Below are positions 21,205 to 24,000 of a stretch of DNA of 24,000 bases, one piece after another. Source of the stretch: Thermoplasmatota archaeon (GTDB lineage: Archaea > Thermoplasmatota > E2 > DHVEG-1 > B18-G2); assembly GCA_029259115.1 (NCBI GenBank), contig JAPDJO010000002.1:27937-51936 (forward strand), read 5' to 3'. The notes beneath the pieces were generated by a model, which worked only from the letters and a program-made list of their open reading frames with translations, did not search any database and was not told the origin of the DNA. Both the position numbers and the translations under genes were made by a program. Positions within the stretch are counted from its first letter, which is position 1, and every line of letters starts with the position of its first letter.

Positions 21205-21969
21205 TTAATTAGAAGACTTGCTGAATTTGATAGCCTCTTCCATTTCGATTTCTCCTTTGAGAACTTTAAGTGCTAATTCTCTGGATATAGTTATTCTACC
21301 ACCGCTTAGGATCCTACTTTTTCTCTGCACTTCCTTTATTTCTCCATCGGTAAATCTTCTGTCTCCATTTCCTCTTACCGATCTACCTCTTGATTTTGCT
21401 ATCCTTATAGCAGCTACCTCGTTTCTTTCCATTCTTGAGTATCCAGTTCTCTGACTCGTTTTTGTTTCATCTACTATTTCAATTCTGATATCAACATCTC
21501 TTAAACCGTCTATGATTCTATCCCTGTAAATTCTGGCATCATGGCCTATCCTTACTATCCTCTCCTTGTCTGAAAAGTCACTCAGAATTTTTCTTACTAT
21601 TCCTAAAGCCTCATCTGTGGATGATGCACACCAGGTTCTTAGAACAGTTTCACCAGAGAGGAGGGCTATACCAGGGTACTCCCCTGGATCTATTCCTATC
21701 ACGATCTCGTCACTATTTCCATGTAAAATTTGCATAGCCCTATCCAATGCAGAATCTATGTCTCTAAAACAGTCAGCATATACGACCTTCCTTCCGCCTA
21801 TATCTTTACCCTCAGCTGAAGATGTTATAATGACACCAACCTTATGCGGTATTCTATCTATGGAGTGTAAATGAATATAATCTATGCCTCTTTCATTCAT
21901 CTTATTCATTATGTCATGTGCTAGCGAGAAATCCTTTGTGTATATCCCCACTATCTTCATCTTTCCCAC
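21205..21969 (-). CDS. Conserved hypothetical protein with an RNase H-fold (RuvC/YqgF-like) core
   Basis: 254 aa. IVIGIDPGEYPGIALL (the first acidic-residue strand typical of RuvC/YqgF folds) is followed by IEIVDETKTS (a second acidic motif), with a basic C-terminal tail. It overlaps the upstream cca ORF by 13 nt. The functional call is tentative. Confidence 0.45.
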   Translation of the reverse strand: MGKMKIVGIYTKDFSLAHDIMNKMNERGIDYIHLHSIDRIPHKVGVIITSSAEGKDIGGRKVVYADCFRDIDSALDRAMQILHGNSDEIVIGIDPGEYPGIALLSGETVLRTWCASSTDEALGIVRKILSDFSDKERIVRIGHDARIYRDRIIDGLRDVDIRIEIVDETKTSQRTGYSRMERNEVAAIRIAKSRGRSVRGNGDRRFTDGEIKEVQRKSRILSGGRITISRELALKVLKGEIEMEEAIKFSKSSN

Positions 21970-23951
21970 GGCATCTTGTTTTCTATATACTCTGTCCAGA
22001 ATAATTTCAAATCATCCCTTAATAAATCTTTCGATGTAAGGATGCTAAATTTACCATCTTTTACAACTTCCTCTATATCTTTTCCGAGGCTTAATTTTCT
22101 CAGATTTTTAGCGAGAAAATCATCCAATCTATTATATTTCCTTTTTACCTCTACATACCACCTTCCATCTTTGAGATAAGGTCCTTTAACTACTTCTTTG
22201 CTGTTTCTCCATTTTTCCAAGAAAGCTTCAACATGCCTTTTTTCTTTTTCTGGAGGTCCCCTATGTATGTATGTTTCTGGTAGTTCTATCTCTTTTGGCT
22301 TGAGAAGAATGTATATCTTGTCTTCAGTGACCACAAACCTTCCATCCTCTATCTCGAAATCATTTTCTTCACACGATTTAACTATCCTTCTCAAAGTCTT
22401 CTTTGCCTGTGGGTACAGATTATCTGGAATTATATCCGGCTTTTCTATTTCTACCCCGATAAAACCATCTAGATGTTTTTTTATTTCCTCATCAGGTAGA
22501 GGTTTTATGGTTTGAGGGAAAAAGAATCTCTCGCTCGGCTTTTCCAGATATTCTTTGCATGCTCTTTTGAATATCTCTAGTTTCTCCTCGGATACGGCTG
22601 ATGCAACATTTCTGTTTGGATCTACCGGATCTATAAAAACTAAAGGATCATTAAAAGCTGGCGAAGGAACTTCCTTGAGTTTTATCACCTCCCCCTTTTT
22701 CCAGTCTTTTGCATTCCTAAGAACATTTTCAAAGGATCCATATTTTAGTATCAGGAGTTCACATAGATAACCCGAAAAACCTTCTACCTCTGCCTCTGCA
22801 CCATAACAACCTATACCTTTTAGAAATCTTTTTAACAATCTTACATCCTTTCTTTTTCTGAAAGGTAGATTTTCTCTTATGAAATCTGTATGAAAGGGAG
22901 TTCTATCAACCGCAGATATCTTTTCAGATGCTTTTTTCACTCTATAGCAAGGAACAATCTCGACATCATATCCCTTGTACTTTCCCCTTATATAGGGATG
23001 CTCCGCATATCTTTCTTCATGCTTTTCCAGTATTTTTCTGCCTATCAAAAGTCCCTTTCTTTCCATTTCCTTTCTCGGTGTGTTTGGAGGGAACAGTAAA
23101 AATATGTCTATATCTACGGAATCTCTAAGATAAGTATCTTTAGCAACTGATCCAACCAATTTTGGTACAGCTTTTATGTTCTCTTTCTTGATTTCCTTTT
23201 CTATTTTGTCTAAGAGCTCTAAAACTATCCTGTTCAGTTTCCTTCTCTCAGCAAAACTCGGTGTAATCTTTCTCAAAACCTCTTTTTCTATGCTGTTCTC
23301 GTAATTCACTACTCCGCAAGCTATCAAAAATATAGATATCCCTCCAATAACATCTGTTATCCAGTGTATGGATAGATATAGCACTGAGAATATCACACCT
23401 AGAGCAGATATCAAAGTGATGTAGAAATATCTTCTATCTCTCATAAAACTCGATGACTTTACTAGGAGAAGTGCCATTGCAACATGTAAGGATGGAAAAC
23501 AGTTATTTTTCGTTGTTACTGCATAAAAGAACTTCTCAATCCCTGGTATGATCTTACCCAAATGGAAATCTATGCCTAAATATGTGTACACATTTGTTAC
23601 AGGTAGAAATAGATAAAAGGGCAGGGCGCAGAGATAGATTATAACCAAACCATATGATAAACTCCTCATGGCTTTTTCCTCGTTGCCAATCAAGAATAGG
23701 AGTGGAGAAAACCATAGGGTAAATGGGTAGAGGATCATATAGAAGAATACTGAGATAATGGAGATCAAGTTAGAAGTATTTTGAGATAGATATTCGAAAA
23801 AACCTTTCTCATAAGAATAGAAGACCGGAGCAAAATCTTTCCCTATTAGATTGGTGGTAAATCTATCTATGAAGTTCACTTCAAACAAGTGGAAAAGTAC
23901 AACCAGAATTAATATAATCAGATGTAATCTGAGATTGAAAAATCCTTCCAT
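21957..23951 (-). CDS. cca: Single ORF fusing an N-terminal membrane PAP2-type phosphatase/phosphotransferase domain to the archaeal class I CCA-adding tRNA nucleotidyltransferase
   Basis: 664 aa. Residues 1-213 have about 6 TM helices and the PAP2 motifs FPSLHVAMA and SIHWITDVIGG. Residues ~220-664 carry GSVAKDTYLRDSVDIDIFLLF, AEHPYIRG, VDRTPFHTDF and GFSGYLCELL, which are diagnostic of archaeal CCA-adding enzymes. No stop separates the two parts. The only candidate internal start is GTG 23309-23307 (Val215). Confidence 0.85.
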   Translation of the reverse strand: MEGFFNLRLHLIILILVVLFHLFEVNFIDRFTTNLIGKDFAPVFYSYEKGFFEYLSQNTSNLISIISVFFYMILYPFTLWFSPLLFLIGNEEKAMRSLSYGLVIIYLCALPFYLFLPVTNVYTYLGIDFHLGKIIPGIEKFFYAVTTKNNCFPSLHVAMALLLVKSSSFMRDRRYFYITLISALGVIFSVLYLSIHWITDVIGGISIFLIACGVVNYENSIEKEVLRKITPSFAERRKLNRIVLELLDKIEKEIKKENIKAVPKLVGSVAKDTYLRDSVDIDIFLLFPPNTPRKEMERKGLLIGRKILEKHEERYAEHPYIRGKYKGYDVEIVPCYRVKKASEKISAVDRTPFHTDFIRENLPFRKRKDVRLLKRFLKGIGCYGAEAEVEGFSGYLCELLILKYGSFENVLRNAKDWKKGEVIKLKEVPSPAFNDPLVFIDPVDPNRNVASAVSEEKLEIFKRACKEYLEKPSERFFFPQTIKPLPDEEIKKHLDGFIGVEIEKPDIIPDNLYPQAKKTLRRIVKSCEENDFEIEDGRFVVTEDKIYILLKPKEIELPETYIHRGPPEKEKRHVEAFLEKWRNSKEVVKGPYLKDGRWYVEVKRKYNRLDDFLAKNLRKLSLGKDIEEVVKDGKFSILTSKDLLRDDLKLFWTEYIENKMPWER

Positions 23952-24000
23952 GTAATTTTTCTTATCTCTCGGAAAGAAGATTGTAAGGAATATGAGAAAA

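Follow-up and report, generated by a model that had tools for sequence, protein, structure and literature searches.

Introduction

CCA-adding enzymes, through which every tRNA passes, are textbook examples of soluble enzymes, and the known class I members are soluble, stand-alone proteins of about 440–450 amino acids, among them that of Archaeoglobus fulgidus (1r89, 3ova, 4x4o). Most archaea use a soluble CCA enzyme encoded beside thpR, without a PAP2 domain. A CCA enzyme and a phosphoesterase-type domain do share one polypeptide in bacterial class II enzymes such as Escherichia coli Cca, which reportedly carries an HD phosphohydrolase domain. That domain, soluble and placed at the C-terminus, works on RNA ends, whereas the PAP2 domain described here is membrane-integral and has its site away from the cytoplasm.

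Membrane proteins of the PAP2 fold include lipid phosphatases (B. subtilis PgpB/YodM, 5jki; A. aeolicus LpxE, 6ebu; E. coli PgpB) and the phosphotransferases of the Aur1 IPC synthase/sphingomyelin synthase (SMS) type (9ivc, 9vj4, 8ijq), the latter using a His-His-Asp triad and lacking the Lys/Arg motif C1. In the gene analysed here, which belongs to an uncultured sediment archaeon of the Thermoplasmatota and reaches the end of a 24,000-nucleotide stretch of DNA (the window), a domain of this fold and a complete class I CCA enzyme are encoded in one open reading frame. In public records the fusions, of about 700 amino acids, are named only 'CCA tRNA nucleotidyltransferase', leaving the membrane half hidden. 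A full-text literature search found no paper on the PAP2-CCA architecture, and PMC9258230 does not mention it.

Results

Gene limits and neighbourhood

An earlier note, made from the letters of the window, had described this gene as an uninterrupted frame of 664 amino acids starting at 23951, and an ORF check of the window recovered that frame (21957..23951, minus strand). The start and the length did not stand: the frame is still open at the window end, the genomic start is an ATG 44 nt farther out (window-equivalent position 24044), and the full product has 695 residues, which adds one N-terminal membrane helix. Since this helix is conserved in homologues (N12, L15, F23, P25), the ATG at 23951 corresponds to internal Met32. 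The start of the 695-residue gene overlaps the stop of an upstream thpR, and the gene downstream of cca occupies the same 3' position in two other loci, L014 and L096. Features are collected in Table 1; residue numbers follow the 695-residue protein unless stated otherwise.

Table 1. Features of the PAP2-CCA locus, in window coordinates
Feature	Position	Strand	Evidence
PAP2_3::class I CCA-adding enzyme gene, in-window part	21957..24000	-	ORF, Pfam, NCBIfam, genome start
PAP2_3 membrane domain, residues 1-248 of 695 (16-248 in window)	23301..24000	-	Pfam, AlphaFold2, loop charges, Foldseek, PDB profile search
C2-like motif F183-P-S-L-H187, outer end of membrane helix 5	23484..23498	-	sequence
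C3-like motif H227-W-I-T-D231-V-I-G-G, outer end of membrane helix 7	23340..23366	-	sequence and alignment counts
Membrane helix 7, residues 229-249, into first CCA helix 252-260	23289..23360	-	DSSP of model, junction DNA of 14 loci, column counts
Complete class I CCA-adding enzyme, residues 251-695: head, neck, body, tail	21960..23294	-	TIGR03671, Foldseek
Nucleotidyltransferase catalytic motif G298-S299 ... D311-x-D313	23106..23153	-	alignment of fusions
Stop codon of PAP2-CCA gene	21957-21959	-	
Downstream co-oriented gene, 254 aa, no Pfam family	21205..21969	-	start overlaps cca stop by 13 nt

The CCA-adding part

The claim that the second part is a complete class I enzyme was borne out by profile and structure comparisons. 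NCBIfam TIGR03671 (cca_archaeal) matches residues 221-623 in the 664-residue numbering with 465 bits against a cut-off of 281, spanning model positions 1-408 of 410, and all three Pfam domains are present in the same numbering (NTP_transf_2 at 247-354, tRNA_NucTransf2 at 369-478, CAA_C at 499-637), accounting for the head with its G-S ... D-x-D motif, the neck (PF09249) and the body and tail (PF21133). The catalytic residues G298, S299, D311 and D313 are invariant among 34 and among 46 aligned fusions. In the AlphaFold2 model (full-length pLDDT 91.8), residues 251-695 show the four-domain fold of the A. fulgidus enzyme over its full length, being matched by Foldseek to 1r89/3ova with TM scores of 0.87-0.91, 34% identity and an rmsd of 2.4-3.0 over about 448 columns; the difference is that the CCA part here begins directly behind a membrane helix.

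TIGR03671 and PF09249 each have a single match in this 98.7%-complete genome, and profile searches of it found no second CCA enzyme of class I or class II (PolyA_pol), so that an additional soluble enzyme of either class was rejected. An encoded CCA is missing from about 37 of the 41 tRNA genes. As no other candidate is present and most of the tRNA genes lack CCA, the 695-residue protein is predicted to perform template-independent CCA addition to tRNA. No CCA-domain residues specific to the PAP2-linked enzymes were found at the 85%/20% thresholds, and there is therefore no sign of co-adaptation between the two parts.

The PAP2 part

Pfam PAP2_3 matches residues 61-212 (664-residue numbering) with 43 bits against a cut-off of 27, and Pfam PAP2 gives a borderline match at 146-207 in the same numbering (27.3 bits against 27.2). 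The domain modelled alone reaches a pLDDT of 93.4. The top Foldseek matches are all PAP2 proteins (Aur1, LpxE, PgpB, PhoN, G6PC1), although weak ones, with a best E-value of 1e-3 and TM scores of 0.48-0.67.

The P-S-L-H and I-H-W-x-x-D-V-x-G-G motifs reported in the earlier note were located at the positions given in Table 1 and provide the C2 motif and the C3 His and Asp of the PAP2 superfamily. FPSL, W228 and G234 are invariant; across 50 fusions H187 is histidine in 36, H227 is kept in 47 and D231 in 46. All 49 order-level partners keep H187, and the triad as a whole does not vary within the order of the window. Neither the C1 motif K-x6-R-P nor the C3 Arg is present: in the aligned loop neither Lys nor Arg is conserved, and the S-R of C3 is replaced by S-V or T-L. 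A canonical PAP2 paralogue of the same genome (L003) has both.

This combination of a His-His-Asp triad, no C1 motif and a predicted exoplasmic-leaflet active site, together with the PAP2_3 match above cut-off, resembles the Aur1/SMS type, which also supplies the best structural match (E-values 1e-3 to 2e-3, TM 0.51-0.57). It differs from that type in sharing only 13-14% identity, in belonging to an archaeal ether-lipid membrane, in its fused RNA enzyme and in having no known Kei1-like partner. With the membrane PAP2 lipid phosphatases it shares an outer-leaflet active site and an inside C-terminus; its C2-C3 region aligns with theirs at E-values of 1.4e-5, obtained for B. subtilis PgpB/YodM in the PDB profile search, and 1.6e-3, and LpxE is the fold match at TM 0.67, but the PAP2-CCA protein lacks their KxxxxxxRP motif and the Arg of SRxxxxxHxxxD.

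No other member of this PAP2 subfamily occurs in the genome. Its triad is intact and under purifying selection, and the PAP2 part here probably still acts on an outer-leaflet membrane lipid. The idea that the fusion substitutes for the CTP-using lipid enzyme CDP-archaeol synthase was rejected, CarS being present at 141 bits.

Topology and the junction

Seven membrane helices are predicted, with the N-terminus outside and the C-terminus inside. The short basic loops RDKK, EEKAMR and MRDRR share one side with the CCA domain, and judging from loop charges and the model, H187, H227 and D231 lie at the opposite ends of helices 5 and 7 from that side. According to DSSP, the helix of residues 229-249 is followed by a two-residue break and then by the CCA helix 252-260 with no linker, and in the full-length model (pTM 0.85) the junction looks rigid.

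This geometry bears on a possible role in tRNA 3'-end repair, in which ThpR would open a 2',3'-cyclic phosphate, PAP2 would remove the phosphate and the CCA domain would rebuild the end, a division of labour that might be likened to that of the HD phosphatase domain in bacterial class II enzymes. The order thpR-PAP2-cca is indeed kept in distant lineages whose neighbours otherwise differ, but we consider such a chain very unlikely because the PAP2 catalytic residues are on the outer membrane face: helix 7 has the His-His-Asp site at one end and the CCA domain at the other, and a full membrane span separates the site from the tRNA. The domain also lacks the Lys and Arg with which C1 binds phosphate and the Arg that belongs to C3, all of which the canonical PAP2 of the genome has, and the triad itself is lost in many fusions. 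Moreover, thpR and cca adjoin each other without PAP2 in six families (f4, f7, f12, f29, f37, f42), two of which, f4 and f7, belong to the same class and have a soluble CCA enzyme beside thpR; the adjacency is therefore older than the PAP2 part or independent of it. On the combined grounds of topology, missing Lys/Arg motifs and these pairs, a tRNA 2'/3'-phosphatase role for PAP2 is unlikely.

The junction was also considered as a site from which a second, soluble CCA enzyme could arise, either by initiation at the GTG at 23309-23307, as had been suggested in the earlier note, or by proteolytic release. A GGAG stands before this GTG, and in several members of the family a GTG, ATG or TTG falls somewhere within the last membrane helix, but the GGAG is only 2 nt away, whereas in split relatives it precedes the ATG by 6 nt, counting the stop codon. 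The GTG encodes Val246, inside membrane helix 7, and such a helix will contain V and L codons by chance alone; only about two residues separate the two helices. The position is not kept even within the genus: a same-genus relative has its GTG one codon earlier, and one family member (L022) has no start codon there. Across the 50 fusions the column is T, V, I or L, with T in 28. Column counts and the junction DNA of 14 loci thus reveal no conserved internal start, the proposal of one was rejected, and production of two proteins appears improbable.

Conservation of the fusion

In the family of the window (f1) the fusion is present in 8 of 8 genomes, with frames of 654-738 amino acids, and full-length matches without a stop occur in five other Thermoplasmatota families (f9, f15, f22, f32, f36), the 50 fused proteins ranging from 99% down to 36-38% identity. 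Measured against an orthologue from the same genus, dN/dS is 0.08 in the PAP2 part and 0.04 in the CCA part, values that mark strong purifying selection on both, and on this comparative evidence the fusion is real and old.

A comparison of orthologous cca loci of the kind proposed in the earlier note finds both states, fusion in these families and separate genes in the sister family. There, the same PAP2, as a gene of its own, touches or overlaps cca in 70 of 71 loci from more than 40 genera, and in 31 of the 71 the stop is followed directly by ATG. The locus in MBG-D/Thermoprofundales MAGs (e.g. SM1-50, SG8-52-3; L062, L073) has orthologous parts in the same order and between the same neighbouring genes, the difference being that there are two genes, with the PAP2 stop abutting or overlapping the cca start. 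One genome of the sister family (G018) offered a 681-residue frame as a further fusion, which is unreadable owing to a masked run of N across the junction. In trees the split loci form a monophyletic group (100/99) lying within fused lineages, and these trees indicate that the split state is derived from a fused ancestor.

A sequencing error or recently lost stop, which the earlier note had left as an option, can be dismissed. A single in-frame stop divides the parts in the sister family, as an assembly artefact or decayed stop might lead one to expect, but the same fused frame recurs in independent assemblies from vent sediments at Guaymas and Pescadero (Auka) and from other sites, distant clades are fused too and both parts are under strong purifying selection, so the probability of such an artefact is negligible and an error or frameshift was rejected. 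The note had also taken a stop in related genomes as speaking against the fusion; stops of this kind do exist in the sister family, where they represent a real evolutionary fission and do not point to an error here.

Decayed and unlinked PAP2 relatives

Among distant fusions forming a high-GC clade, the triad is broken in 17 of 32, and in one genus K, P or Q replaces H187 in 4 of 5 species, and 3 of those 4 have no second member of the subfamily. A sister PAP2 clade is not linked to cca; in f4 and f7 its genes share an operon with a GT4 glycosyltransferase. Some stand-alone proteins nest inside the cca-linked PAP2 clade; a search with P0130 turned up no close copy in the 401 genomes sampled across the phylum.

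Discussion

We regard it as rather probable that the best explanation of these observations is a single membrane protein with its CCA enzyme on the cytoplasmic face and a PAP2 part that serves chiefly as an anchor. The gene encodes one 695-residue protein, in which residues 1-248 form a seven-helix, Aur1-like PAP2_3 domain with its His-His-Asp site on the outer membrane face, and helix 7 continues almost unbroken into the only class I CCA enzyme of the cell. Because helix 7 passes into the CCA domain, that enzyme would lie on the cytoplasmic face, and the addition of CCA to nearly all tRNAs, as well as the repair of damaged CCA ends, would take place at the membrane. The contribution of PAP2 that is conserved in the pair would most likely be membrane anchoring, and if the PAP2 part is active in this genome, two chemically independent activities would be carried on opposite membrane faces.

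Alternatively, the fusion of two neighbouring housekeeping genes may have been neutral or merely tolerated, PAP2 remaining an independent lipid enzyme and the link providing co-expression only. The existence of the unlinked sister clade in its glycosyltransferase operon, the presence of one subfamily member per genome checked, a CCA domain without linked-specific residues and the invariant triad in the window's order all agree with this, and yet we consider it unlikely, given that the link persists to the lowest identities observed, that the genes still adjoin in nearly all loci after fission, and that the high-GC clade retains the domain even with catalytic residues gone, where a dead independent enzyme should vanish. 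Since the architecture outlasts the loss of catalytic residues in that distant clade, anchoring rather than catalysis is most likely the conserved role of the PAP2 part. Where the triad is invariant, as in the order to which the window belongs, PAP2 may be just an enzyme whose fusion is incidental.

The analysis also draws attention to a hitherto uncharacterised PAP2_3 subfamily of archaea, which some lineages pair with a GT4 glycosyltransferase. The subfamily is likely to take part in the head-group chemistry of membrane lipids; for a transfer of head groups between lipids, the glycosyltransferase beside the sister-clade orthologue is the one hint.

For the tRNA biology of these archaea, the presence of the sole CCA enzyme on a polytopic membrane protein over such deep divergence raises the question of whether the maturation and repair of tRNA ends are spatially organised, and nature provides the comparisons needed, namely fused against split and unlinked genes, intact against decayed PAP2 and the full-length protein against a soluble CCA domain. 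We tentatively suggest, with somewhat less than even confidence, that within one large branch of the Thermoplasmatota every tRNA has its CCA added and repaired obligatorily at the cytoplasmic membrane, the enzyme being either fused to a PAP2-fold protein or coupled to it in fixed stoichiometry, and that this protein has become a catalytically dead anchor in part of the clade. If this is true, membrane-organised maturation of tRNA 3' ends would be seen in archaea for the first time, the site at which tRNA ends are made or mended would matter, and the supply of tRNA may be coupled to the state of the membrane and its lipids.

Gene structure and conservation

The 664-aa open reading frame described in an earlier note is present in the window (contig C2:27937-51936 of the genome) and remains open at the window end, the full-length start in the genome sequence being an ATG located 44 nt past that end, which yields a 695-aa product. 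The start previously placed at 23951 is thus an internal Met32, since the additional 31 N-terminal residues form one more membrane helix, with positions conserved among homologues. Within the 664-aa frame, Pfam analysis places a PAP2_3 match (43 bits, residues 61-212) and a marginally above cut-off PAP2 match (27.3 bits) in the first third, followed C-terminally by three archaeal CCA-adding enzyme domains, and residues 221-623 match the NCBIfam equivalog model TIGR03671 at 465 bits. The main reading of the note, a PAP2 domain fused to a class I CCA-adding enzyme in one frame, is supported by these matches and by conservation. Both halves are members of known families; full-text literature searches found neither their combination nor a sole CCA enzyme tethered to the membrane.

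The upstream gene thpR, whose stop overlaps the PAP2-cca start by one base, lies immediately upstream of cca across many Thermoplasmatota families, with PAP2 present or absent. It adjoins cca without PAP2 in families f4 and f7 (same class), f12, f29, f37 and f42, which makes the thpR-cca link independent of PAP2. The downstream 254-aa gene also follows cca in loci L014 and L096, with purH next.

Coordinates of the features discussed (residues numbered in the 695-aa protein)
Feature	Position	Strand	Details
Fusion ORF as first read	21957..23951	minus	664 aa
LigT/ThpR-type 2H phosphoesterase gene (thpR)	24044-24604, window-equivalent (locus L002 2229-2789)	minus	186 aa
Downstream gene	21205-21969	minus	254 aa; no Pfam match; overlaps cca stop by 13 nt
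Canonical PAP2 of the same genome	locus L003 1447-2241 (G000 contig C10)	minus	KxxxxxxRP, PSGH and SRxxxxxHxxxD all present
PAP2_3 orthologue and GT4 gene pairs	L119 1489-3419; L120 324-2268; L121 344-2265		
H187	start of helix 5		predicted on opposite side from CCA domain
H227, D231	start of helix 7		predicted on opposite side from CCA domain

Dozens of proteins of 690-710 aa sharing this combination of Pfam domains were recovered when 5.8 billion proteins were searched, at identities from 99% down to 38% (36% in alignment), all of them from Thermoplasmata or Thermoplasmatota MAGs and labelled at NCBI only as 'CCA tRNA nucleotidyltransferase'. Among 118 species genomes sampled for the window's order, long frames were found in all eight genomes of its own family, f1, relatives in which originate from Guaymas and Pescadero (Auka) vent sediments. 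When 401 genomes of the phylum were scanned with a fusion profile, stop-free full-length matches were obtained in f1, f9 (same class), f15, f22, f32 and f36 (other classes), and these fusions were verified on fetched loci. Against a same-genus orthologue, for which dS is near saturation, the PAP2 and CCA parts show dN/dS values of ~0.08 and ~0.04, respectively. A sequencing error or lost stop, raised in the note as a possible source of the long frame, is ruled out by conservation of the fusion across families to 36-38% identity, and it is close to certain that this architecture is real, ancient and selected.

The genome (completeness 98.7%, contamination estimate 5.5%) contains a single match each to TIGR03671 and PF09249; the search for class II enzymes (PF01743) gave no match. 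An encoded CCA is absent from ~37 of the 41 tRNA genes, and the four genes bearing one are located on small contigs (C29, C46, C48 and C88) which may be contaminants in the MAG. Being the sole CCA enzyme in a genome with so few CCA-bearing tRNA genes, the fused protein must serve nearly all tRNAs.

Predicted topology and the internal start

Confident AlphaFold2 models of the full-length protein (pLDDT 91.8, pTM 0.85) and of the membrane domain alone (pLDDT 93.4, pTM 0.91) were obtained, the former with seven long helices preceding the CCA part. The short basic loops PRDKK 25-29, EEKAMR 122-127 and MRDRR 201-205 are predicted on the same side of the membrane as the CCA domain, and the long loops 57-92 and 149-185 on the opposite side with the catalytic residues. 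Helix 7 (229-249) would be separated by only two residues, with no linker, from the first CCA helix (252-260).

A second, soluble product had been suggested to start at GTG 23309-23307, here Val246, which falls within modelled helix 7. This proposal is not borne out by the comparison: among 50 fusions this position is T in 28, V in 8, I in 8 and L in 5, the GTG is displaced one codon earlier in a same-genus relative, start codons are absent from the junction region of locus L022, and no upstream GGAG is conserved among the fusions examined. Spacing is also poor, at 2 nt before the GTG versus 6 nt before the ATG in split relatives (stop codon included). Nothing in the fusions examined points to a conserved second product; a species-specific one is conceivable.

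Role of the membrane domain

Structurally, the membrane part is nearest to Aur1 (E 1e-3, TM 0.51-0.57) and LpxE (TM 0.67), and by sequence to B. subtilis PgpB/YodM. The C1 motif KxxxxxxRP and the C3 Arg, both present in the canonical PAP2 of the same genome, are missing from this membrane part, which for this reason resembles His-His-Asp phosphotransferases rather than classical phosphomonoesterases. The CCA part matches the A. fulgidus enzyme on superposition (TM 0.87-0.91) and looks like an ordinary CCA enzyme, as no CCA-domain residues specific to PAP2-linked enzymes emerged, at the thresholds applied, when linked and unlinked ones were compared.

Among 49 partners from the window's order, H187 and H227 never vary and D231 hardly does. 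This triad is kept in all 18 low-GC fusions, and at least one of its residues is lost in 17 of the 32 high-GC-clade fusions, in several separate sub-branches; in one genus of that clade, H187 is replaced by K, P or Q in four of five species, and three of these four have no second subfamily member. The structural motifs (FPSL, W228, G234-G235, PF..P.TN) and the fusion itself outlast triad loss, which argues that the conserved contribution of the PAP2 part would be structural, keeping the CCA enzyme at the membrane, with catalysis an additional function probably retained in this organism. Two other roles were considered: a tRNA-directed phosphatase is unlikely, because the modelled site lies a full membrane span from the CCA domain and phosphate-binding residues are missing, and substitution for CDP-archaeol synthase can be discarded, as the genome encodes CarS.

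Split relatives and evolution

Both arrangements that the note had envisaged for related loci occur, the same fusion throughout the eight f1 genomes and a separate upstream PAP2 gene in the sister family f3, which includes MAGs SM1-50 and SG8-52-3 (MBG-D/Thermoprofundales). Family f3 has an ordinary CCA enzyme of 450 aa, the orthologous PAP2 gene (253-275 aa) lying directly upstream, in the order thpR, PAP2, cca. Out of 84 loci fetched by PAP2 profile or protein identity, 10 are fused, 36 have PAP2 and cca as two same-frame genes, and in 34 more the genes abut or overlap in different frames (5-nt gap to 38-nt overlap); in only one is cca 1.4 kb from PAP2. The stop is followed at once by ATG in 31 of the 36 same-frame loci, e.g., AAGGAGACA-TAA-ATG; at these 31 junctions (within L020-L093) the PAP2 stop is TAA, TGA or TAG, and AAGGAG lies within the last PAP2 codons. 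One base change would re-fuse any of these pairs, and stop read-through would give the fused protein.

A tree of CCA domains, outgroups included, unites the split enzymes in a single clade (support 100/99), sister to the f1 fusions, with more fused lineages branching outside, and the PAP2 tree is concordant. The simplest reading would be one fission of a fused ancestor, tight translational coupling being kept afterwards. All cca-linked PAP2 domains fall in one clade of the PAP2 tree (SH-aLRT 99), which also holds 16 stand-alone proteins. The fused lineages occupy two major clades of the CCA tree, each also with unlinked members, a pattern that could be explained by one origin with several losses or by module transfer.

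About 90 genomes of f13 and f31 match the fusion profile at only E 1e-20 to 1e-32, the CCA part of the remaining families matching at 1e-100 or better; the CCA enzyme of f13 and f31 has either diverged strongly or is of a different type. The related PAP2_3 proteins P0231 (706 aa) and P0256 (698 aa) carry a 440-aa C-terminal part with no match to the CCA profile or any Pfam family, so this part appears to be another fusion partner with no family assigned.

The PAP2 orthologue of f4 and f7 (178-183 bits) is found away from cca, overlapping a GT4 glycosyltransferase gene, which hints that the PAP2_3 subfamily acts in the head-group chemistry of membrane lipids or glycolipids; this GT4-linked group is sister to the cca-linked clade. 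On balance, we favour a reading in which the CCA-adding enzyme of this organism would be anchored in the membrane by an Aur1-like PAP2 domain that probably still acts on lipids.
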